A DNA stretch of 64,000 bases, taken from positions 78,309 to 142,308 of the forward strand of contig JBAQNP010000020.1 of assembly GCA_049303905.1 (NCBI GenBank). The letters run 5' to 3'. Shown one piece after another: positions 15,985-62,877 of the stretch; position 1 is the stretch's first letter, and each line of letters opens with the position of its first letter. The DNA is from Candidatus Moraniibacteriota bacterium. GTDB taxonomy: Bacteria; Patescibacteriota; Minisyncoccia; Moranbacterales; UBA2206. A program made the translations under genes and the position numbers. Under the pieces are notes generated by a model, which had not been told where the DNA came from, did no database searches, and was given only the letters and a program-made list of their open reading frames with translations.

Positions 15985-16371
15985 ATGAAAACAATCAACA
16001 GAAAATATCATTTATTTGATGCAAAAAAAGAAAATCTTGGTAGAATGGCAACAAAAATTGCGACAATTCTTCGTGGTAAAAACAAAGTTGATTTCACTCC
16101 AAATATCGATGGTGGTGATTTCGTGGTGGTTATAAATTCTGATAATTTGCAAGTAACCGGCAATAAGCTAGATGGAAAGTTATACCATCATTATAGCGGA
16201 TATCCTGGAGGAATTAGAAGCGTTAAACTCAAAGATCAAATTGAAAAAGATTCTCGAGAAGTTATAAAGACAGCCGTCTATGGGATGTTGTCAAAAAATA
16301 AATTGAGAGATTTGATGATAAAAAGACTTTTGATATATAAAGATGATAAGCACGAACACAAGATTTCGTAA
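15985..16371 (+). CDS. rplM: 50S ribosomal protein L13
   Basis: LGRMATKIATILRGKNKVDFTPNIDGGDFVVVINSD is canonical L13. Confidence 0.9.
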   Translation: MKTINRKYHLFDAKKENLGRMATKIATILRGKNKVDFTPNIDGGDFVVVINSDNLQVTGNKLDGKLYHHYSGYPGGIRSVKLKDQIEKDSREVIKTAVYGMLSKNKLRDLMIKRLLIYKDDKHEHKIS

Positions 16372-34096: not shown

Positions 34097-34167
34097 GCGG
34101 GGTTAGTATAGTGGTAGTACAGGACTCTCCAAAAGTTCTAGCGTAGGTTCAATTCCTACACCCCGTG
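34097..34167 (+). tRNA. tRNA-Trp (anticodon CCA)
   Basis: Acceptor GCGGGGT/ACCCCGT (G1·U72), anticodon arm GGACT-CTCCAAA-AGTTC, T-arm GTAGG-TTCAATT-CCTAC, G73. Confidence 0.7.
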
Positions 34168-34177
34168 CATAAGCAAA

Positions 34178-38792: not shown

Positions 38793-40064
38793 TTATTTCA
38801 ACTCTTTTATAATATCTTCAATCTTCACAATCCTACTTTCTTTTCCGGCACGTTTTTTGATTTCTACCCAGCCCGCATCGCTACGCGAAGCGTTGCTGGC
38901 GGGTCCGCCGTACTCTAATGTTTTTTTGCTGATAACAATGCGATAGGGAATACCAATTAAATCTGAATCGGCGAATTTTTCTCCGGCGGAAGTTTCTCGG
39001 TCGTCATAGAGAACTTCAATTCCACTCTTGGATAAATTATCATAAATCTCTTGTGCCTGTTCATTCTGAGAAAGACTAATCAGATGAACTTTAAAAGGCG
39101 CTACTGCTTCTGGCCAGATAATTCCTTTTTCGTCGTTGTTAGTTTCGACAATTGTTCCCATAAGTCTTGAGATGCCTATTCCGTATGATCCCATATAAAC
39201 TAATTGCTCGTTGCTATTTTCATCTTTATATTTCAAATTAAAAGGCTCTGAAAATTTATAGCCCAAAGAAAATATATTTCCAACTTCGATGGCTTTTTTT
39301 TCAATTAATTTATTTTTATTTAAATCAAGGTCTTTTAAAACTTCATCATTAAAAACTTCTTTATTGATAGCTATATTTTTTTCTTCATCGATATATATAA
39401 TATCTTCTCCGGCTTCTGAAATAGTTTGAAATTCATGAGAATATTTAGAAAAAGTTCCGCCCGAAGCAAAAGTTAGAAATGTTCTATTTCCTAGACCAAC
39501 TCTATTAAAAATATTTTTATAAGCAATTTTAGCTTTTTCGTAATAAGTGTTATGCTCTTCTTCATTTCTAGAAAAAGAATATAGCGCTTTCCAAAAAAAT
39601 TCTCTACCTCGCATAATTCCTGATTTTGCTCTTGCTTCATTTCTAAAGACAGTTCTAATGTCGTATGCATATATCGGAAGATCTTTGTATGATGAAATAA
39701 AATTAGTCATTAAATTTGACATAGGTTCTTCGTGAGTAAATCCTAAGCCAAGTTCAGTTCCATTTTTTAGGGTGGTTTTAAACCAATTATCTACAATTTT
39801 ATCATCCCAACGATTAGTTTTTTCCCAAACTTCCTTTTTCTGAAGAGCGGTGGATTGTATCTCAACACCACCAGTTTTATTCATTTCATCCCTAACTATG
39901 GCGGATATTTTATTAATAACTTTTAATCCTAATGGTAAAATAGAATAAATTCCTGCCATTTCTTTATTGATAAATCCAGCGCGAATAAGAAGTTGTGCAT
40001 TTAGACTCACTTCGTCTTTGGGGGCATTTTTTTGAGTTTTGGTGAAAAGTTGTGATTGTTTCAT
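38793..40064 (-). CDS. proS: Proline--tRNA ligase (short form)
   Basis: Class II motifs and an N-terminal region typical of ProRS; 423 aa. Confidence 0.8.
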   Translation of the reverse strand: MKQSQLFTKTQKNAPKDEVSLNAQLLIRAGFINKEMAGIYSILPLGLKVINKISAIVRDEMNKTGGVEIQSTALQKKEVWEKTNRWDDKIVDNWFKTTLKNGTELGLGFTHEEPMSNLMTNFISSYKDLPIYAYDIRTVFRNEARAKSGIMRGREFFWKALYSFSRNEEEHNTYYEKAKIAYKNIFNRVGLGNRTFLTFASGGTFSKYSHEFQTISEAGEDIIYIDEEKNIAINKEVFNDEVLKDLDLNKNKLIEKKAIEVGNIFSLGYKFSEPFNLKYKDENSNEQLVYMGSYGIGISRLMGTIVETNNDEKGIIWPEAVAPFKVHLISLSQNEQAQEIYDNLSKSGIEVLYDDRETSAGEKFADSDLIGIPYRIVISKKTLEYGGPASNASRSDAGWVEIKKRAGKESRIVKIEDIIKELK

Positions 40065-40304: not shown

Positions 40305-40637
40305 TTAGCAAAACATATAGGGGCTTTTATTTTTTTCTGTTTGAGCATTTCTTCTCCAGTATGCTTTGCTGAAAATTACATTAAAGAAGGTGACTTTCAT
40401 TCGAGACTTTTGTTTTTTGCTTAAATTTCTAAAATAAATAATCCAACCCCGATTATTAGTTTTCTTAACGGAAAGATCTTCGGCAAAGGCGATGATATTA
40501 TCTTCAATATCAACAGAAATTAAACATCTTCCGTGAATTAAGCTTAACAAACTTCTCTTTATGCCAAAATTTTCTAGTAAGCGCATCGCTCTTTGAGCGT
40601 TTGTTTGGTCTATCCTCCTAATATCAAATTCAAGCAT
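40305..40637 (-). CDS. Hypothetical protein (110 aa)
   Basis: Good coding look; a faint Cas2/VapD-like pattern at the N-terminus was not considered sufficient. Confidence 0.35.
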   Translation of the reverse strand: MLEFDIRRIDQTNAQRAMRLLENFGIKRSLLSLIHGRCLISVDIEDNIIAFAEDLSVKKTNNRGWIIYFRNLSKKQKSRMKVTFFNVIFSKAYWRRNAQTEKNKSPYMFC

Positions 40638-40701
40638 GGTATTTTCTCCTCTTGTAAAAAATTAAAGAACCTTATTTTCATATTCCCACCATTGGAAATA
40701 C

Positions 40702-40778
40702 AAAAAAACAGCTCACTTAAGGCTGTCTGGTAAAGTTCAATTTTTGTGTAATTTTAAACGCTAACAAACAACCTCAAG
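40702..40778. promoter_or_regulatory. Conserved ~80-nt motif, copy 1 (leader or small-RNA candidate)
   Basis: AAAAAAACAGC…GTCTGGTAAAGTTCAAT…TTTTAAACGCTAACAAACAACCTCAA, shared with 45549-45627. It lies 65 nt upstream of the minus-strand ORF 40305-40637. On that strand it ends with an ACAGC…GCTGT hairpin followed by a U-run. Confidence 0.4.
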
Positions 40779-40872
40779 GATGATTTTGGGTTGATCGGTT
40801 GCGGTAATGAGTTTGTTAGAATCTTTTTCATAAGCCCAATATAGCATAGGATTATTTTTTGTCAACTTTCAA

Positions 40873-40901
40873 TTGACAAAAAGCATAATTTCGGATAGTA
40901 T
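40873..40901 (+). promoter_or_regulatory. Sigma70-like promoter (TTGACA-17-TAGTAT) overlapping a TTGTCAA-N5-TTGACAA palindrome
   Basis: TTGACA 40873-40878, 17-nt spacer, TAGTAT 40896-40901; drives the ~310-nt trpB2 leader. Confidence 0.5.
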
Positions 40902-41016
40902 TTAGCTATGAAACAGGAAATCTATAAAAATTCAATTTTCTGGTGTGCTTTCAAGATCTAATTTTTGAGAGCCTCTTAGTGTTTTTGGAAAAATATAGCA
41001 AATCATTTGGCAAGAG

Positions 41017-41046
41017 TTCTCAAAATAGAGAACTTTTTTGTTTTTA
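41017..41046 (+). terminator. Leader terminator 1 (AGTTCTC-AAAATA-GAGAACT + T-run)
   Basis: 7-bp stem followed by TTTTTTGTTTTT, just upstream of the leader-peptide ORF. Confidence 0.45.
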
Positions 41047-41056
41047 GAATAATATT

Positions 41057-41140
41057 ATGACAAATCATATAAAAAATAGTTTGATACAAAAAAATATCTG
41101 GTGGGTAAGAACATTTCCAAGAGCAGGTTGGCGTTTTTAA
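41057..41140 (+). CDS. Trp-codon-rich leader peptide (27 aa, MTNHIKNSLIQKKIWWVRTFPRAGWRF)
   Basis: Tandem TGG codons at 41099-41104 and a third at 41129-41131. The stop sits at 41138-41140, inside the antiterminator/terminator region upstream of trpB2. Confidence 0.45.
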   Translation: MTNHIKNSLIQKNIWWVRTFPRAGWRF

Positions 41141-41199
41141 ATTTTGAAAAATTTAGACAAAGCCAAAAGAACCTGCTCACAAAGCAGGTCTTATTAATT
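41123..41199 (+). promoter_or_regulatory. Antiterminator/terminator switch of a putative trp attenuator
   Basis: AGCAGGTT (41123-41130, inside the leader ORF) can pair with AACCTGCT (41170-41177). Alternatively AACCTGCT-CACAA-AGCAGGT forms a terminator followed by CTTATTAATT. Confidence 0.45.
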
Positions 41200-41218
41200 A
41201 AAAAATAATTCTAAACTT

Positions 41219-42502
41219 ATGCAAACTATAAAAACATATCTCAATATCAGTTACTATCTCAAAAAATATCTTGGCAAACTTCCTTTTCCGCCAATTCATC
41301 CGGCGACAGGAGAAAGATTGAAACCAGAAGATCTGGAACCGCTTTTTGCCAAGGAATTGGTGCGACAAGAATTTTCTTTGGAAAAAGAAATCGCCATTCC
41401 CGAGGAAGTACAAGAGATATATTCACTATACCGCCCAACCCCATTTCTTCGCGCCAGAAGATTGGAAAAATTTCTGGGTACACCGGCGCATATCTATTAT
41501 AAATATGAAGGGGCGAGTCCGGCCGGCAGTCATAAGCTTAACACCGCACTTCCGCAAGCGTTCTATAACAAAAAAGAAGGCGTGAAAATGCTCACGACTG
41601 AAACTGGCGCGGGACAGTGGGGATCAGCGCTAGCGATGGCATGTAATTTTTTCAATTTGGCGTGCAAAGTTTTTATGGTGAAAATTTCCTTTGAGCAAAA
41701 ACCATATCGAAAAGTTATTATGCAAACGTTCGGCGCGGATATTACGCCTAGTCCATCAGATACAACTGAGATTGGAAAAAAAATGCTTGAGCAATATCCT
41801 GGCACTTCAGGCAGTTTGGGGATGGCGGTTTCTGAAGCAATTGAAGTGGCGATGAAAAACAAGGAGGCTAAGTATGCTTTAGGTAGCGTACTAAATCATG
41901 TGCTTTTGCATCAAACCATCATAGGGCAAGAAGCAATCCATCAATTGGAAAAAGCTGGGGAATATCCCGATGTAGTGATTGGTTGTTGCGGAGGAGGAAG
42001 TAATTTTGCGGGAATGGCTTTTCCATTTTTAGCGCAAAAACTGGCTGGGAAAAAATCAAAAACTAGATTCATCGGAGTGGAGCCAAGAAGTTGCGCTTCG
42101 ATGGGCGAGGGGCAATATCGCTATGACCATGGCGACACTGCTAAACTCACTCCGCTTTTTATGATGGAAACTTTAGGTTGCGATTTTGTTCCGCCTTCCG
42201 AACATTCCGGCGGGCTTCGCTATCACGGCATCGCGCCTCTCATTGCTTTTTTGCATCATGAGGAACTCATTGAAGCGAGAAATTATGATCAAAAAGAAAT
42301 TTTTGCCTCAGCCATTGATTTTGCCAAAGCTGAAGGAATTATCCCTGCGCCGGAATCAGCGCATGCTATAAAAGCGACCATTGAAGAAGCGCTTAGATGC
42401 AAAAAAGAAAACAAAAAAGAAACCATAGTCTTCTGTCTTTCCGGGCACGGAATGCTTGATCTTAAAGGATACGAAGATTATTTAAGTGGGAAAATAAAAT
42501 AA
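41219..42502 (+). CDS. trpB: TrpB2-type tryptophan synthase beta subunit (PLP-dependent)
   Basis: PLP lysine context GSHKLNTA, glycine loop GCCGGGSNFAGMAF; 427 aa, typical of the stand-alone TrpB2 clade. Confidence 0.8.
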   Translation: MQTIKTYLNISYYLKKYLGKLPFPPIHPATGERLKPEDLEPLFAKELVRQEFSLEKEIAIPEEVQEIYSLYRPTPFLRARRLEKFLGTPAHIYYKYEGASPAGSHKLNTALPQAFYNKKEGVKMLTTETGAGQWGSALAMACNFFNLACKVFMVKISFEQKPYRKVIMQTFGADITPSPSDTTEIGKKMLEQYPGTSGSLGMAVSEAIEVAMKNKEAKYALGSVLNHVLLHQTIIGQEAIHQLEKAGEYPDVVIGCCGGGSNFAGMAFPFLAQKLAGKKSKTRFIGVEPRSCASMGEGQYRYDHGDTAKLTPLFMMETLGCDFVPPSEHSGGLRYHGIAPLIAFLHHEELIEARNYDQKEIFASAIDFAKAEGIIPAPESAHAIKATIEEALRCKKENKKETIVFCLSGHGMLDLKGYEDYLSGKIK

Positions 42503-42521: not shown

Positions 42522-42556
42522 AAAAAGAGTCCTGAATAATTGGGACTCTTTTGTGT
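42522..42556 (+). terminator. Rho-independent terminator
   Basis: AGAGTCC-TGAATAATTG-GGACTCT followed by TTTGTGTT. Confidence 0.55.
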
Positions 42557-42581: not shown

Positions 42582-42609
42582 TTGACAATTTTTTTGTATT
42601 TGCTATGCT
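42582..42609 (+). promoter_or_regulatory. Promoter of cassette copy 1 (TTGACA-16-TATGCT)
   Basis: Conserved with the copy-2 promoter at 57886 (TTGACA-17-TATACT). Followed by the conserved TTTATCNAAGTAAAGTG. Confidence 0.5.
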
Positions 42610-42645
42610 TTATCTAAGTAAAGTGATTTATTAAAGTAAAGCAAT

Positions 42646-42972
42646 ATGAAAAAGTTAAATGATAGTAAGAATGAAGATTTAATGCAAGCTATTTTGGCGC
42701 TTGAAAACAAGCAAGAAGCCAAGATGTTTTTGCGTGACCTTTTGACGGAAAAGGAAATTTTAGAATTGGGCAATCGCTGGAAAGCGGTGCAAATGTTAGA
42801 CGCGAAAAAAACTTATTCTGAAATTGAAAAAGAAACCGGCCTTAGCTCAACTACTGTGGCGCGAATTTCCAAATGGTTTCAAGCAGGCACAGGCGGATAT
42901 GGTTTAATGCTAAAAAGAATTTCTAAGAATCATCACAGAACCCCTTCTAGTTCTAGAAAGCGGTTGATTTAG
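42646..42972 (+). CDS. TrpR-like (YerC/YecD family) DNA-binding protein, copy 1
   Basis: FLRDLLTEKEILELGNRWKAVQML…TYSEIEKETGLSSTTVARISKWFQAGTGGY matches the Trp-repressor-fold YerC family. Confidence 0.7.
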   Translation: MKKLNDSKNEDLMQAILALENKQEAKMFLRDLLTEKEILELGNRWKAVQMLDAKKTYSEIEKETGLSSTTVARISKWFQAGTGGYGLMLKRISKNHHRTPSSSRKRLI

Positions 42973-43079
42973 ATTTTTAGTTATATATCTTCACAAACCT
43001 CTTTCTGGGATAGGAAGAGGTTTTTTAAATTTGGACCTCTTAATATTAGTACATTAAAAATTAAATAGAGGAGAAGAAA

Positions 43080-43934
43080 ATGAAAAAAAATCTGACTTTG
43101 GGAATTCCTTCTGGTTCACTTTTTGATTCCACAGTAGCCTTGCTTCGAAAAGTAGGAATCGAAGTGGTGGTTAACGGGCGCAATTTTATGGCGGAAATTA
43201 GAGGAAGCGATATTTTTTCTCGCGCAATAATTATGCGACCGAATGATCTGCCTCTAGCGCTCAAAAACGGAATTGTTGACGGCATCATCACGGGGCTTGA
43301 TATGTGTCTCGAAAGTGGTTTAGGAAAAAAGCTTTGTATAATAGTAGAGCTTAACTTTTCCAAAAAATCTAAAGTGCCGGCTCGAGTGGTAGTTTTCTGT
43401 CGAGAAAGTGATTTAGATGAAATAGTTGATTCCGGAGAAATCTTAGTTTCATCAGAATATATGGAATTGGCGAAAACTATTTTCAAAAAATCGCAGATAA
43501 TTTTCTCTACTGGTTCGACTGAAATCAAAGTCGCTATTGCGGAATTTGGTTTTCGATACGGCGTTGGCGTGGTCGAAAGTGGAAAGAGTCTTAAGGACAA
43601 CAATCTCAAGATTGTGAAAGTTATCCTGACCACTCCGGTAATTTTCGCTGTAAGAAAAGAAAACCTGGAATTTCAAATCTTCGGCCAAATGCTCAAGGGT
43701 GCGTTGGAAGCCGAGATTTATCAGTTGGTAAAATTCAACGCGGATTCAAAGGACAAGGATCAGTTGATTGAAATTTTGCCAGCTATGGAATCGCCAACTA
43801 TTAGCAATCTTGCTGATGGCATGATTGCAATCGAGACGGTTATTGCTAAAGAAGCAATCACCGATTCGATCATAGCAATTAGGAAAAATGGCGGCAGAAA
43901 TATTCTCGTACAAAACATTAACATCTCCGTGTAA
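43080..43934 (+). CDS. hisG: ATP phosphoribosyltransferase, long form (HisG), copy 1
   Basis: Full-length match to long-form HisG: N-terminal LTLGIPSGSLFDSTVALLRKVGIEV, PRPP loop GVVESGKSL, C-terminal regulatory domain ILPAMESPTISNLADG…GGRNILVQNI. Confidence 0.7.
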   Translation: MKKNLTLGIPSGSLFDSTVALLRKVGIEVVVNGRNFMAEIRGSDIFSRAIIMRPNDLPLALKNGIVDGIITGLDMCLESGLGKKLCIIVELNFSKKSKVPARVVVFCRESDLDEIVDSGEILVSSEYMELAKTIFKKSQIIFSTGSTEIKVAIAEFGFRYGVGVVESGKSLKDNNLKIVKVILTTPVIFAVRKENLEFQIFGQMLKGALEAEIYQLVKFNADSKDKDQLIEILPAMESPTISNLADGMIAIETVIAKEAITDSIIAIRKNGGRNILVQNINISV

Positions 43935-43940
43935 GAAATA

Positions 43941-43980
43941 AGGGCGTGATGAATATCATTCATCCGCCCTTTCTAATTTT
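43941..43980 (+). terminator. Rho-independent terminator (conserved in both cassette copies)
   Basis: GGGCG-TGATGAAT-ATC-ATTCATC-CGCCC followed by TTTCTAATTTTT. Confidence 0.65.
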
Positions 43981-44698
43981 TCTTAGATAAAACCAATAGC
44001 CATTTATTTATAATTTTTAATGCCTCTTTATGATTCATGATTTCATTGTGTCCTGTTAAAACAATTTTAAAATCTAATTTGCTAATAATATTTAGCGCTC
44101 TTAAAAATTGTTTTTTATCTGAAGAATGACAATTAGCATAAATTTCGCCATTATATAATAAATCTCCAGATATTAAAATTTTATATTCAGGTTCATAGTA
44201 TATGCAAGAATCTTTTGAATGACCACCAAGGTGCATTATCTTGAAATTATAATCAAACCATCGTATCGATTTTGTTTTAATTGGTATAAAATCTGGAATA
44301 ATAAGATTAAAGTTATCACATACTTGTTTCACCTTCCTATTTATTATTTTATTTAATAAGACTGGGTTAAAATTTTCTTTTTTTAAATATTGTAAGCACC
44401 AATTTTTTTGATCATATATGTTTTTTTTGATAACTTCTGGAATAAGATATTCATTTTTTTTAAAATCTGAAATACCGCCGATATGATCAAAGTGAGAATG
44501 GGTTAAGGCAACTAGGAAATTTTCAATACCCAATTTATTTAGAAATTTTTTTAAAGAAAACAAACCTAATCCGGTATCAAAAATCAAGCAATTATTATTT
44601 TTTTTAAACAAATAAATATTGCAGCTTTCAAAATTCCAAGGCTCGCTAATTTGAAATATGTTTTTTGAGATTTTTTTTAATATAAATTTTTTATTCAT
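43973..44698 (-). CDS. Metallo-beta-lactamase-fold hydrolase
   Basis: HxHxDH motif ALTHSHFDHIGG, plus downstream H (HLGGH) and D (SGDLL). Very AT-rich relative to its neighbours. Confidence 0.7.
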   Translation of the reverse strand: MNKKFILKKISKNIFQISEPWNFESCNIYLFKKNNNCLIFDTGLGLFSLKKFLNKLGIENFLVALTHSHFDHIGGISDFKKNEYLIPEVIKKNIYDQKNWCLQYLKKENFNPVLLNKIINRKVKQVCDNFNLIIPDFIPIKTKSIRWFDYNFKIMHLGGHSKDSCIYYEPEYKILISGDLLYNGEIYANCHSSDKKQFLRALNIISKLDFKIVLTGHNEIMNHKEALKIINKWLLVLSKKN

Positions 44699-44780: not shown

Positions 44781-45470
44781 TTATGGCTTGAAAGGTTTTA
44801 AATACTGAACCCAACACCCGGCGTTTAATGATTCCGCATCTTCCATTGAAAATAAACACGGTTTAATAATTTTTGCTCCCATCCTTTCGTGAAAGCGTAA
44901 CACCGGATCAAAAAGTTTTCCGTCAGCGCGACGCAAATTGCAATACTCATTAATTTTCATCTCAGGCCTTTTGTGATAAAAAGGCACGCGCGCATTAGCA
45001 ATTACTGTCTGAATAGGGGGTGACTCTTTTTTTGGAAAGAATAAGGCGTCTAATGTGTATGCAATTAACAGTTCTGATGCTTTGAATTTTTCTGGCCAAT
45101 ATTTGTCGTGATCAAAATATATACCTCTGAATTTAGGTATTACTCCGACACCAACTAGAAAGCCCGTATTGCCAGTTGGAATATGGACTTTATTTGTCCA
45201 TCCAAAAGATGTCATTTCATCCCATGATGTAAGGATATTGATATCTTGATTCCAATTAAATCTAAAGGCAAATTGGCTACCGACCGGTTTGCCATTAGTT
45301 ATTGCTAATTGCACCACTTGTTTTGATGCAATTCTGGCTGCAATTTTTGGTTTTGACGCCGAAACATTTTCACCTGGAGATGCCCAAGCGAGTTGTTCGA
45401 TAATCATAAGGCTTTCCAACGAATTGGCGGGGTTTTGAAAATTTAAGATAGGCTTGATTTGAATTTTCAT
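44781..45470 (-). CDS. Hypothetical protein (229 aa)
   Basis: No recognisable motif; preceded by the conserved ~80-nt motif. Confidence 0.4.
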   Translation of the reverse strand: MKIQIKPILNFQNPANSLESLMIIEQLAWASPGENVSASKPKIAARIASKQVVQLAITNGKPVGSQFAFRFNWNQDINILTSWDEMTSFGWTNKVHIPTGNTGFLVGVGVIPKFRGIYFDHDKYWPEKFKASELLIAYTLDALFFPKKESPPIQTVIANARVPFYHKRPEMKINEYCNLRRADGKLFDPVLRFHERMGAKIIKPCLFSMEDAESLNAGCWVQYLKPFKP

Positions 45471-45548: not shown

Positions 45549-45627
45549 AAAAAAACAGCCCTTGAGGCCGTCTGATAAAGTTTAATGATTTTTCTAAAGT
45601 TTTTAAACGCTAACAAACAACCTCAAT
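45549..45627. promoter_or_regulatory. Conserved ~80-nt motif, copy 2
   Basis: AAAAAAAACAGCCC…GTCTGATAAAGTTTAAT…TTTTAAACGCTAACAAACAACCTCAA, 79 nt upstream of the minus-strand ORF 44781-45470. Confidence 0.4.
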
Positions 45628-45759
45628 AAATAGTGGTTGTTGCGTCGTCGTTGAATTAGATTAGATTGTATGTTTTTCATATCGTTGAGTAGAATATAAA
45701 TCAATAATTGTTTTTTGTCAAGGGCTTGTGAAAAATTTGAAATTATTGAACATTAAAAC

Positions 45760-57838: not shown

Positions 57839-57885
57839 TTAAAGGGAGATTAAAGGGGTCGGTACCTCTTTAGTTGTTTTTTGTC

Positions 57886-57914
57886 TTGACAATATTTTTT
57901 ATGTTTGCTATACT
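57886..57914 (+). promoter_or_regulatory. Promoter of cassette copy 2 (TTGACA-17-TATACT)
   Basis: Consensus -35 and -10 with a 17-nt spacer. Confidence 0.55.
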
Positions 57915-57940
57915 TTATCAAAGTAAAGTGGTATAAAACG

Positions 57941-58267
57941 ATGAAAAAGTTAAATGATAATAAAACTGAAGATTTAATGCAAGCTATTTTGGCGTTGGAA
58001 AGCAAAAAAGAAGCCAAGATGTTTTTGCGTGACCTTTTGACGGAAAAGGAAATTTTGGAATTGGGTAATCGCTGGAAAGCGGTGCAAATGTTAGACCAGA
58101 AAAAAACTTATTCTGAAATCGAAAAAGAAACTGGCCTTAGTTCAACCACAGTGGCGCGAATCTCCAAATGGTTTCAAGAAGGCACAGGTGGATACGGCTT
58201 AATACTAAACAGAATTTCCAAAAATCATCACAAAACCTCTTCTAGTTCTAGAAAGCGGTTGATTTAG
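57941..58267 (+). CDS. TrpR-like (YerC/YecD family) DNA-binding protein, copy 2
   Basis: About 90% identical to 42646-42972. The ORF-track start at 57905 is a TTG; the ATG at 57941 matches the paralog. Confidence 0.7.
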   Translation: MKKLNDNKTEDLMQAILALESKKEAKMFLRDLLTEKEILELGNRWKAVQMLDQKKTYSEIEKETGLSSTTVARISKWFQEGTGGYGLILNRISKNHHKTSSSSRKRLI

Positions 58268-58371
58268 ATTTTTAGTTATTTATCTTCACAAACCTCTTTC
58301 TGGGATAGGAAGAGGTTTTTTTTATGCCTCTTAATATTGGTACATTAAAAATTAAATGTAAGGAGAAGAAA

Positions 58372-58773
58372 ATGAAAATCAACAAATCAATGATTAACAG
58401 TGAAATTTTGAACAAGGTAAGTTTCGGCAGAGCCATTCATCGGGATGGAACTAAGGCGCCGGACTTGATTGATGTGATTTTGCAAAATCATCTCAACGGA
58501 CAAGTGCTCTATGGTGCTTCTATGAACCAGGAAAATTTCGCAGAAACATTGGAAATTGGTTTTGTTGTTCTTTATAGCAAATCCAGAAAGACCCGCTGGT
58601 TCAAAGGAGAAACAAGCGGAGACAAGCTTCAAGTCGTTAATATTTTCTTAAATTGCAATAACGATCAATTATTGATCCAAGTTATTCCAATTGGAGCAGG
58701 CGTGTGTCACGAAAAAGATGAAAATGGCATTTCAAAACCAACATGCTTCAGCAAATTGTTGCTGGAAGTATAA
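58372..58773 (+). CDS. hisI: Phosphoribosyl-AMP cyclohydrolase (HisI)
   Basis: SRKTRWFKGETSGDKLQVVNIFLNCNNDQLLIQVIPIGAGVCH matches the HisI core. The start is set at the ATG preceded by AAGGAGAAGAAA (track start 58324). Confidence 0.7.
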   Translation: MKINKSMINSEILNKVSFGRAIHRDGTKAPDLIDVILQNHLNGQVLYGASMNQENFAETLEIGFVVLYSKSRKTRWFKGETSGDKLQVVNIFLNCNNDQLLIQVIPIGAGVCHEKDENGISKPTCFSKLLLEV

Positions 58774-58800
58774 ACTAAAAAAACAAAAGGAGAAAAAGAA

Positions 58801-59655
58801 ATGAAAAAAAATTTGATTTTGGGAATTCCTTCTGGTTCACTTTTTGATTCTACGGTGGCTTTGCTTCGAAAAGTAGGAATTGAAGTGGTGGTTAATGGGC
58901 GCAATTTTATGGCAGAAATTAGAGGAAGTGATATTTTTTCTCGCGCGATAATTATGAGACCTAATGATCTTCCTCTGGCGCTCAAAAACGGAATTGTTGA
59001 CGGCATCATCACGGGACTTGATATGTGCCTAGAAAGTGGCTTGGAAAAAGAGCTTTGTATAATGGTAGAGCTTAACTTTTCCAAAAAATCCAAAGTGCCG
59101 GCTCGAGTCGTGGTTTTCTGCCGAGAAAATGATTGTGATGAAATAGTTGATTCAGGAGAAATCTTAGTTTCATCAGAATATATGGAATTGGCGAGAAATA
59201 TTTTCAAAAAATCGAAAATAGTTTTCTCTACTGGCTCGACTGAAATCAAAGTCGCTATTGAGGAATTTGGTTTCCGATACGGCGTTGGCGTGGTCGAAAG
59301 TGGAAAGAGCCTTAAGGACAATAATCTCAAGATTGTGAAAGTTATCCTGACAACCCCGGTGATTTTTGCTGTGAGAAAAGAAAGTCTGGAATTTGAAATT
59401 TTCGGCCAAATGCTCAAGGGGGCGCTGGAAGCGGAGATGTATCAATTGGTGAAATTCAATGCAGATTCAAAAGACAAGGATCGGCTGATTGATATTTTGC
59501 CTGCTATGGAATCACCAACCATCAGCAATCTTGCTGATGGCATGATCGCAATCGAGACTGTTATTACTAAAGAAAAAATCACTGATTCGATTATAGCAAT
59601 CAAGAAATCGGGAGGCAGAAATATTCTAGTACAAAACTTGAATATTTCTCTGTAA
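58801..59655 (+). CDS. hisG: ATP phosphoribosyltransferase, long form (HisG), copy 2
   Basis: About 90% identical to 43080-43934. Confidence 0.7.
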   Translation: MKKNLILGIPSGSLFDSTVALLRKVGIEVVVNGRNFMAEIRGSDIFSRAIIMRPNDLPLALKNGIVDGIITGLDMCLESGLEKELCIMVELNFSKKSKVPARVVVFCRENDCDEIVDSGEILVSSEYMELARNIFKKSKIVFSTGSTEIKVAIEEFGFRYGVGVVESGKSLKDNNLKIVKVILTTPVIFAVRKESLEFEIFGQMLKGALEAEMYQLVKFNADSKDKDRLIDILPAMESPTISNLADGMIAIETVITKEKITDSIIAIKKSGGRNILVQNLNISL

Positions 59656-59661
59656 AAGACA

Positions 59662-59698
59662 AAGGGCGTGATGGTATCATTCATCCGCCCTTTTAATA
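59662..59698 (+). terminator. Rho-independent terminator (paralog of 43941-43980)
   Basis: AAGGGCG-TGATGGTATCATTCATC-CGCCCTTTT. Confidence 0.65.
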
Positions 59699-59753
59699 TT
59701 TGAATTTATTCTTACATTATGCTAGATTTAGTAGGAAATAAGCTAATATTTCT

Positions 59754-62799: not shown

Positions 62800-62877
62800 G
62801 GGCGCGTAGTTCTAATTGGCTAGAACATTGGACTCCAAATCCAATAGTTGGGGGTTCGAGTCCCTCCGCGCCTGCCA
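62800..62877 (+). tRNA. tRNA-Trp (anticodon CCA), second divergent copy, CCA encoded
   Basis: Acceptor GGGCGCG/CGCGCCT, anticodon arm TTGGA-CTCCAAA-TCCAA, T-loop TTCGAGT, G73, 3' CCA. Confidence 0.7.

Follow-up and report, generated by a model that had tools for sequence, protein, structure and literature searches.

How could a bacterium of the Candidate Phyla Radiation (CPR) match the expression of an orphan tryptophan synthase gene to its need for tryptophan? This question is raised by the leader of trpB2 in a 64,000-nucleotide stretch of contig JBAQNP010000020.1 (Candidatus Moraniibacteriota bacterium), which is called the window throughout. CPR bacteria are thought to have little regulatory capacity, and indole salvage is the proposed role of stand-alone TrpB2. 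An initial annotation, made from the sequence alone, had described a classical-looking trp attenuator upstream of the gene, and we followed it up by folding and by comparison with related loci. We concluded that the leader is most probably a ribosome-mediated (leader-peptide) transcription attenuator, which couples trpB2 to the supply of charged tRNA-Trp. Its elements, their geometry, their conservation and co-variation, and a switch that depends on the position of a ribosome mask were observed in silico.

Leader ORF and proposed attenuator upstream of trpB2

The main leader open reading frame (ORF), which is trpL-like, occupies 41057..41140 on the plus strand, from ATG at 41057 to TAA at 41138-41140, and its 27 codons would give the peptide MTNHIKNSLIQKNIWWVRTFPRAGWRF. 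The initial annotation had placed Trp at residues 15, 16 and 25. All three were found, as a tandem UGG UGG at 41099-41104 and a third codon at 41129-41131, while residue 13 had to be corrected from K to N. At the genomic Trp frequency of 1.0%, the probability of three or more Trp in 27 codons is 0.0024. A short ORF with tandem Trp (WW) is not rare as such, since WW was present in 10 of 540 short ORFs of the window; of the other nine, eight fall within long genes read in a different frame and one (16019-16135) has no assignment, as judged by comparing coordinates by hand.

Two pairings compete for one strand downstream of these codons. The antiterminator 5' arm GAGCAGGUUGGC (41121..41132) lies inside the last six leader codons, at -18..-8 from the stop codon. 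Its partner GCCA ... ACCUGCUC (41162..41178) is common with the terminator 5' arm, and the resulting antiterminator has -23.0 kcal/mol. It encloses an inner hairpin, UUUAAAUUU-UGAA-AAAUUUAGA (41136..41157), which begins at the stop codon in the constrained fold; relatives carry other palindromic hairpins at this position, e.g. GATGTATCGATACATC or CTTTAATTAATTAAAG. The competing attenuator terminator, T2 (41168..41199), is ACCUGCU-CACAA-AGCAGGU followed by a weak U-tract, CUUAUUAAUU, and its stem of 7 bp is extendable to 9 bp (about -10 kcal/mol). The alternative pairing of the ORF end with 41170-41177 was confirmed, with the ORF segment moved by one base: AGCAGGTT (41122-41129) is complementary to AACCTGCT (41170-41177), and the AACCTGCT segment pairs also with AGCAGGT (41183-41189). 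The terminator hairpin had been placed 40 nt before trpB2; it is present, and it ends 29 nt from the start codon.

The antiterminator duplex (-16.6 kcal/mol) had a z-score of -4.4 and was reached by 1 of 300 shuffles, and the minimum free energy (MFE) of the leader had a folding z-score of -3.0. Chance tests from the window alone are only suggestive; significance rests on the comparative data below.

The RNA was folded with a simulated 29-nt ribosome footprint carrying a chosen codon in the A site. When the mask was set on the first (W1) or second (W2) codon of the Trp pair, the MFE structure was the antiterminator at -23.0 kcal/mol, without the terminator. When it was set at the stop codon or the third Trp codon, the terminator hairpin formed. 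The claim that a ribosome at the stop leads to the terminator, and one stalled at WW to the antiterminator, was thus reproduced under both constraints.

In the proposed mechanism, transcription would begin about 40908 from the promoter at 40873-40901, and a ribosome would translate the leader ORF while RNA polymerase moves on. If Trp-tRNA is scarce, the ribosome would stall with UGG-UGG in its decoding centre and its footprint would end before 41121. The antiterminator 5' arm would then be free to pair with 41162-41178 once this is made (-23 kcal/mol), T2 would be blocked, and trpB2 would be transcribed. If Trp-tRNA is plentiful, the ribosome would reach the stop (41138) and cover 41121-41132. 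With the arm masked, 41171-41177 would pair with 41183-41189 to form T2, and transcription would stop 20-30 nt before trpB2. Translation of the leader ORF, its coupling to transcription, termination at T2 and the response to tryptophan are predicted steps.

Conservation of the leader within its lineage

Third codon positions of trpB2, which are 80% identical between the window and the loci L001 and L011 of the same lineage, were used as a neutral yardstick (20% divergence). Measured in this way, the leader is a conservation mosaic: differences amount to 2-4% in the regulatory codons, in the antiterminator arm and in T2 together with its tail and the 5' untranslated region, and the constrained segments are each significantly under 20% divergence (P 2e-4 to 2e-3). 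From codon 12 to the stop, the leader ORF differs at 1-2 of 51 positions (2-4%), and the block 41170-41218 at 1-2 of 49 (P about 1e-3 under 20% neutral divergence). Leader codons 4-11 show 25-42% differences, yet without a stop or frameshift.

Trp leaders in other CPR bacteria

From genome and metagenome collections, we retrieved 160 loci that encode relatives of TrpB2 and searched up to 450 nt upstream of trpB2 for WW mini-ORFs, defined by an ATG start, at most 70 codons and WW. They were found on the sense strand in 39 of 160 loci and on the antisense strand in 3 of 160 (Fisher p = 6e-10). The majority of low-GC CPR loci have one, including Microgenomates/Roizmanbacteria, the 'Patescibacteria group' and several probably mislabelled metagenome-assembled genomes (MAGs). 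In about 30 CPR loci, whose TrpB2 is 60-72% identical to that of the window, the WW mini-ORF is accompanied by a canonical terminator and by an antiterminator arm overlapping the ORF end. The same WW leader ORF and alternative pairing, which the initial annotation had asked for in orthologous leaders, were therefore found in CPR relatives, via different and co-varying sequences.

By peptide, the leaders fell into three subtypes: type A ends in ...NWWQINYPRSGWRF, type B in ...NWWTxNLW, and type C has ...WWTRxxWRG.... The predicted window peptide, ending in ...NIWWVRTFPRAGWRF, clearly places its leader in type A. Nearly all WW leaders are followed by a canonical terminator of -9 to -14 kcal/mol with U5-8, which starts 22-32 nt past the leader stop and ends 28-120 nt before trpB2. 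In the window the same place is taken by the 7-9 bp stem of about -10 kcal/mol with its weak U-tract. The strongest duplex with the terminator 5' arm involves positions -20..-3 from the stop in type A, where W2 stands at -36, and -1 to +9 or beyond in type B, where W2 stands at -18. The arm of the window matches all type-A relatives in its placement.

MAFFT/RNAalifold on type-A leaders recovered the terminator and a hairpin between regions 1 and 2 (the 1:2 hairpin), but not the antiterminator, because its 3' arms are out of register. Alignment-free tests (shuffles, a cross-pairing permutation and mask folding) were therefore used in place of a covariance model. Compared with shuffled leaders, the duplex was stronger in 24 of 28 loci (z -2 to -6) and no better in the remaining four (L096, L013, L005 and L021). 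The arm pairs vary by lineage and stay complementary: AGCAGGTT/AACCTGCT in the window corresponds to GCGAGTGGCG/CGCCGCTCGC in L002, TTGCGGTGGC/GCCACTCGCAA in L036, CTTGGCGGGG/CCCCGCCAA in L003 and GAAGCAG/CTGCTTC in type B. When arms of 14 representatives were cross-paired, native pairs had a mean of -17.0 kcal/mol against -12.1 kcal/mol for non-native pairs, and the native mean was reached by 0 of 20,000 permutations (p<5e-5).

Mask folding was extended to 26 loci. With the ribosome at the stop, the terminator formed in 26 of 26; with the ribosome at W2, it was absent in 21 of 26. The share of terminator pairs formed over these loci was 99% (ribosome at stop), 18% (at W2) and 15% (no ribosome), and the free-RNA fold showed the terminator only in L006, L008, L088 and L084.

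Reduced leader forms were also seen, with one Trp codon right before UGA or at the very end of an upstream trpR-like ORF. Single-Trp leaders of the first kind (...FCW, with a conserved CTGGTGAAGC and only a weak hairpin) occur in L104, L106, L107/L108 and L100/L102. The string TGGTGAAGCAG is common to FCW-type and type-B leaders, and in type B it is the antiterminator arm. Mini-ORFs with WWW (e.g. MKRLDRHTRTGWWWRNPVEVCPP) lie 140-210 nt upstream of trpB2 in L017, L019, L044, L060, L062, L074, L120 and L133; where these loci have GenBank titles, they point to MAGs of Ignavibacteria, Chitinophagales or Bacteroidota. No Rfam match at the gathering threshold was found in these WWW loci.

Reading frame or RNA element

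The most conserved nucleotides of the family are UGGUGG and (G)GUGGCG. They could be read as a peptide-independent RNA switch, in which UGGUGG/GGUGGCG is bound by uncharged tRNA-Trp in a T-box-like manner, by tryptophan or by a protein, and the reading frame is incidental. GGUGG superficially recalls the T-box core, and true T-boxes exist in CPR, as in L163, where the Rfam T-box model scored 103 bits. This same hit served as a positive control, showing that the model detects a true CPR T-box. T-box RF00230, with its stem I, specifier loop and T-box bulge, matched neither the window nor any trpB2 leader of the relatives, and no relevant Rfam model, T-box and Trp_leader included, gave a match at gathering or at E<=10, whether in the window or in 31 related loci, so the T-box reading of these motifs was rejected. 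Rfam RF00513 Trp_leader in particular had no match at gathering in the window and none at E<=10 in 40640-41300.

Frame conservation also speaks against a pure RNA switch. Every WW shares its frame with an ATG further upstream, the stop stands at a fixed distance from the antiterminator arm, and the N-terminal codons have diverged freely while no stop or frameshift has arisen. When the window is compared with L007-type leaders, [FY]PRxGWRF shows six single-base codon differences, of which five are synonymous, and this argues that the leader frame is read. Stem I, a specifier-like structure and a (G/U)AG repeat array were all lacking. We therefore regard the RNA switch as extremely unlikely.

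Three other candidates were rejected in the course of these searches. Strings like GGGTGGTACC upstream of trpB2 in L081, L082 and L091 gave no T-box match. A leader of the TRAP type requires 9-11 (G/U)AG triplets with 2-3 nt spacing, and 11 scattered triplets were found here whose longest correctly spaced chain was 1. Matches to Phe_leader and PyrG_leader (E 0.28-3.5) were far below gathering and reflect only a generic hairpin-plus-U-run shape.

Third Trp codon and the end of the leader peptide

A Trp codon invariably occurs 0-5 codons before the stop, and the simple attenuation model does not explain this third Trp. The tail of the peptide, [FY]P...W[RL][FL]-stop or ...NLW-UGA, might make the nascent peptide a TnaC-like sensor or arrest peptide, which would respond to free tryptophan by slower release at the stop and so prolong masking of the arm, besides tRNA-Trp sensing at WW. 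Peptide conservation exceeds what the RNA pairing needs, and the window, which is without the 1:2 hairpin, has nevertheless kept FPRAGWRF, near YPRSGWRF, with mostly synonymous changes. On the other hand, L014, L036 and L096 have altered residues between P and W (PLER, PRLR and PLSG) and kept the CCGC/GCGG hairpin, so that the constraint there is on the RNA and not on the peptide. The G-rich UGG codon also suits pairing with GC-rich terminator arms, and the peptide shows no likeness to the W12/D16/P24 pattern of TnaC. An arrest peptide is thus very unlikely.

Points against attenuation at T2

Several points weigh against the leader-peptide attenuator, all support for which is computational. 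The 1:2 anti-antiterminator hairpin, CUAUCCGC/GCGGGUGG, is conserved in other type-A leaders by RNAalifold and lost in the window lineage. Free window RNA (41105-41205) folds into the antiterminator (forced antiterminator -25.3 kcal/mol, forced terminator -21.9 kcal/mol), and the window version is therefore 'on by default'. The 1:2 hairpin is, however, a feature of the E. coli model and not of every leader-peptide attenuator. The U-tract of T2 is poor, and its weakness is confined to the window, L001 and L011; termination efficiency at T2 is therefore uncertain. Since the third Trp codon forms part of the antiterminator arm, a stall there would favour termination and not read-through, which the simple model leaves unexplained. 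Under the WW-stall mask, 5 of 26 loci still formed the terminator.

Translation of the leader ORF would require internal initiation at an AUG without a Shine-Dalgarno (SD) motif 150 nt into the transcript, which also counts against the model. The initial annotation had taken a missing ribosome-binding site as a test of the leader ORF. The SD motif is indeed missing, and this is uninformative because SD-less starts are the norm in this genome: an SD-like motif was found in 8 of 51 window ORFs of >=150 aa, and trpB2 itself is without one.

A further point is T1, a canonical intrinsic-terminator-like hairpin followed by UUUUUUGUUUUU (41012..41046; 10 bp, -10.5 kcal/mol), which lies between the promoter and the main leader ORF and could stop most transcripts. 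It formed under every ribosome mask in full-length folds. A second terminator-like hairpin upstream of the leader ORF had been annotated at 41017-41046; it is real, with the hairpin proper at 41012-41037 and the T-run TTTTTTGTTTTT after it. T1 was kept in the close relatives L001 and L011, where two A-to-G changes in its 3' arm preserve pairing as G-U, and the segment from its T-run to the start of the main leader ORF has 0 of 28 differences. That T1 might end all transcription before the leader ORF, which the initial annotation had foreseen, belongs to the main caveat for the window: T1 may be constitutive or leaky, or a promoter may lie between it and the leader ORF.

The rest of the 5' half suggests another role for T1. 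A 17-codon mini-ORF, ORF1 (MKQEIYKNSIFWCAFKI, 40908..40961, plus strand), begins 6 nt past the -10 box and is therefore probably leaderless. Its length and layout recall type-B leaders, with UGG UGU where these and the main leader have UGG UGG, and it is possibly a degenerate first leader peptide. A hairpin, P1 (GCUUUCAAGA / UUUUGAGAGC, 40947..40972), spans the end of ORF1 in MFE folds, and its 3' arm (40965-40972) alternatively pairs with the T1 5' arm at 41016-41023. In a co-transcriptional (truncated) fold, this T1 antiterminator appeared only with a ribosome on the ORF1 Trp codon. From the ORF1 W codon through the stop and the next 50 nt, 5 of 83 positions differ from L001 (P = 3e-4). Instead of stopping transcription constitutively, T1 may serve as a second attenuator that depends on ORF1. 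That the whole 5' half (leaderless ORF1 with UGG-UGU, P1 and T1) is a second, degenerate attenuator in tandem is a tentative proposal, which we hold somewhat less probable than its absence.

ORF1 is one of three window mini-ORFs that begin 6-12 nt past a -10 box, at 40908 (TAGTAT) and, on the minus strand, at 40831 (TATATT) and 45680 (TATATT). Leaderless or near-leaderless mRNAs are therefore expected for these three.

The main leader ORF and T2 could also be a decaying relic in this lineage. T2 would then have lost efficient termination, and any control would fall to T1 together with ORF1, to an internal promoter downstream of T1 or to a regulator that binds DNA. The weak U-tract of T2, the canonical form of T1 and the loss of the 1:2 hairpin would all agree with this, as would a -10-like TAGAAT (41045-41050) 6 nt before the ATG of the main leader ORF, a spacing that recurs at three other putative leaderless starts. 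An internal promoter would, however, lack a convincing -35 box, the sole listed site having 9/12 matches at 41026-41053. Conservation within the leader is highest at the WW codons, the antiterminator arm and T2 with its tail (2-4% differences against 20% at neutral positions), and this argues for current function. We consider a relic unlikely and retain the leader-peptide attenuator as the most probable explanation of the leader.

Promoter and locus layout

All elements are contained in the 581-nt gap between a minus-strand 110-aa ORF (40637..40305) and trpB2. The sigma-70-type promoter TTGACA-17-TAGTAT (40873..40901, plus strand) is in the sequence as initially annotated, with 10/12 matches (TTGACA at 40873-40878, a 17-nt spacer, TAGTAT at 40896-40901). 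Its hexamers and spacing are kept in L001 and L011, while the spacer is free to vary (7 of 17 differences, 41%). In L011 the upstream gene is different, yet the conserved block begins precisely at the -35 box of the trpB2 promoter.

A TTGTCAA/TTGACAA palindrome reported at the promoter is present at 40859-40879, with a spacing of N7 where N5 had been given. It is made up of the -35 boxes of two divergent promoters, set back to back, and is not evidently an operator, because a strong divergent promoter lies on the minus strand at 40865..40838 (11/12 matches, extended -10). L011 is without the left palindrome arm, though the trpB2 promoter is otherwise conserved there.

The regulated gene, trpB2 (41219..42502, plus strand), encodes a TrpB-like pyridoxal phosphate (PLP) enzyme of 427 aa (NCBIfam PRK12391 1e-200; TIGR01415 trpB_rel 7.5e-181; Pfam PALP). 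The same TrpB2 occurs at 95-98% identity in MAGs labelled Parcubacteria group and Candidatus Moraniibacteriota, and a window protein takes its name from a Moraniibacteriota MAG. A terminator at 42523..42552 (13 bp, -11.8 kcal/mol) lies 3' of the gene, and trpB2 is therefore monocistronic; yerC, which comes next, is served by a separate promoter at 42582-42609. Over the whole window, promoter-like sites were hardly enriched (13 against 9.5+/-3.0 in shuffles), and terminator-like sites numbered 8 against 2.8+/-1.8.

TrpR-family genes and regulatory context

Two TrpR-like (YerC) genes had been noted nearby, and both were confirmed, at 42646-42972 (Pfam Trp_repressor 1.8e-19; NCBIfam yecD_yerC) and at 57941-58267 (91% identical to the first copy). 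Each is paired with a copy of hisG, and nothing visible connects them to the trpB2 promoter. The yerC-hisG cassette is duplicated (42582-43934 and 57885-59701, 88-91% identical), and in the second cassette an ORF that looks by eye to be of the HisI type (58324-58773) is inserted between yerC and hisG. Because the duplicated cassette pairs each yerC with a hisG, this arrangement suggests that the YerC copies relate to the hisG genes and not to trpB2. An ACTAGT operator-like palindrome was not found at the trpB2 or yerC promoters of the window.

The relatives differ in this respect. Of the 30 CPR loci that were inspected, roughly 25 have a small gene of about 81-106 aa directly 5' of the Trp leader, and loci with this small gene 200-600 nt upstream of trpB2 are L002, L004-L010, L014, L036, L086-L099, L103, L104, L107 and L119. 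Scans of four representatives assigned them to the Pfam Trp_repressor family (E 1e-18 to 1e-22). Promoters of most such loci carry one or two ACTAGT over the -10 box, typically as ACTAGT-N2-ACTAGT, which we take to resemble half-sites of the E. coli TrpR operator. By their sequences, the relatives would have an E. coli-like two-tier design of repressor and attenuator in the order trpR-leader-trpB2. In tblastn with the window YerC, the upstream TrpR-like genes of relatives were undetected, and it was ORF extraction with Pfam that found them; the window YerC copies are therefore of a different subfamily. In L005, L087 and L103, the trpR-like ORF ends in ...GWR or ...SWR just 5' of hairpins, as if the repressor ORF doubled as the leader peptide.

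Other neighbours are synthetase genes. L013 has a class-I Trp/Tyr-type tRNA synthetase gene (Pfam tRNA-synt_1b) directly before its WW leader and trpB2. A closely similar ORF takes this place in L084, where it is preceded by a T-box-like GGTGGTACCGCG string that gave no Rfam T-box match at gathering. This regulatory context in relatives fits Trp control. The window itself carries two tRNA-Trp(CCA) genes within 64 kb (34097-34168 and 62800-62877), each followed by a terminator. The second is 78 nt long and has two small D-loop insertions in the Rfam tRNA alignment.

A second leader family with Arg codons

Another putative attenuator, of an Arg type, was observed on the minus strand. Its promoter TTGACA-17-TATATT (45721..45693) precedes the leader MKNIQSNLIQRRRNNHYLLRLFVSV (45680..45603), whose last codons are overlapped by a long antiterminator, and a terminator follows at 45572..45554 with U8. 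The genes after it are a 229-aa ORF (45470..44781) and a metallo-beta-lactamase (MBL)-fold hydrolase gene (44698..43973). In mask folding, the free RNA and the stop mask gave the terminator, and a stall at RRR gave the antiterminator. All four homologous CPR loci (L161-L164, 52-60% protein identity) had an upstream RR or RRR mini-ORF. In L163 the Rfam T-box precedes the RR/RRR leader, in tandem, and its specifier position reads GAA-CGA (Arg) by our own reading of the alignment. These results suggest that the CPR-wide operon with the 229-aa gene is arginine-starvation-responsive. Since a family with the same architecture occurs in the window and in other CPR, the mechanism appears to be in general use here. 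The 229-aa protein had no Pfam or NCBIfam match, and its structure is predicted to be a GNAT-like fold of the CurA/GphF/SxtA decarboxylase type (pLDDT 93.5).

A paralogue of this leader lies upstream of the 110-aa ORF. Its mini-ORF MKKILTNSLPQPINPKSSLRLFVSV (40831..40754, minus strand) has its ATG at 40831, 6 nt past a -10 TATATT, is followed by a terminator at 40727..40707 and is divergent from the trpB2 promoter. The copy (40702-40777) is 82% identical to a stretch in the 3' part of the Arg-type leader (45549-45626). Its Arg codons are replaced, apparently via frameshifting; it may sense Pro or be degenerate. proS is found further downstream (40064..38793), seemingly with its own promoters.

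A wider proposal would join both families. Ultra-small CPR bacteria would sense amino acids in general through leader-peptide attenuators that are SD-less and in part leaderless (Trp for the orphan trpB2, Arg for the GNAT-like/MBL operon, sometimes in tandem or behind a T-box), and the Trp-leader tail ([FY]P...W-R-F-stop or NLW-UGA) with its invariant third Trp would be a nascent-peptide or termination-rate element integrating free tryptophan with tRNA-Trp charging. As a whole, this is improbable.

Comparison with known systems

The trpB2 leaders provide a concrete conserved case of probable ribosome-mediated attenuation in the CPR, where regulation is almost unstudied and cultures are scarce. 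No publication describing leader-peptide attenuation in CPR/Patescibacteria turned up in full-text searches. The regulatory logic serves as functional annotation. An orphan TrpB2 that is switched on, as proposed, by shortage of Trp-tRNA and stands, in relatives, behind a TrpR-type repressor would be used for making tryptophan, presumably via indole salvage; the same logic marks a CPR-wide operon of unknown role as arginine-responsive. The case further indicates that attenuation can work in a genome largely without SD sequences. About 30 natural variants are usable for tests of attenuator design; among them are leaders that have or lack the 1:2 hairpin, fusions to trpR and tandem arrangements.

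T-box riboswitches of Firmicutes, also found in CPR, share with the trpB2 leader the charging of a specific tRNA as input and leader antitermination as output. A T-box, however, senses by RNA-tRNA contact without translation, and the trpB2 leader has no T-box features. TnaC, with W12-D16-P24, stalls at its stop and controls a catabolic operon by Rho-dependent termination, whereas the window peptide has no such pattern and its leader would act by an intrinsic terminator before a synthetic gene.

The trpR-IGR-trpBA unit of Chlamydia trachomatis likewise joins a repressor, a regulatory intergenic region (IGR) and a Trp-salvage synthase in a host-dependent bacterium with a reduced genome, and indole salvage is its presumed role (PMC7755916). 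Its TrpL is atypical, with 59 aa and no tandem Trp, and was judged a poor attenuator, YtgR attenuating in trans (PMC7755916). CPR leaders, in contrast, have canonical WW, terminator and antiterminator.

In Actinobacteria (Corynebacterium, Streptomyces), trp attenuators were predicted by comparison (Seliverstov et al. 2005, PMC1262725). They have peptides with double or triple UGG, GC-rich terminators and conserved complementary triples common to antiterminator and terminator, and stand upstream of a trpB-containing operon and of trpS2 (PMC1262725). The CPR leaders differ in phylum and in sequence; they are AT-rich, SD-less and often inside a trpR-leader-trpB2 unit. In Actinobacteria, 'trpB2A' denotes a second operon of canonical type and no orphan gene of the TrpB2 class.

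Functionally, the leader would be an attenuator of the TrpL type, as known from trpL of E. coli and other enterobacteria (RF00513). Both have a short ORF with tandem UGG and a strand common to terminator and antiterminator, and in both the position of the ribosome decides. In most CPR relatives a TrpR-family repressor is added, which gives the two-tier logic of the E. coli trp system as summarised in PMC7755916. The CPR leader differs in controlling a single stand-alone trpB2, not a biosynthetic operon, and in having no RF00513 match. The window leader has no SD motif and no 1:2 anti-antiterminator, so that untranslated RNA defaults to read-through; its WW lies 18 nt upstream of the antiterminator arm and not in region 1; it has an extra Trp codon in region 2; and it is possibly tandem, which the textbook case is not. 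The CPR Trp-leader family is thus a new family, outside Rfam, of a mechanism that is itself classical, and the advance is one of distribution and annotation, not of principle.

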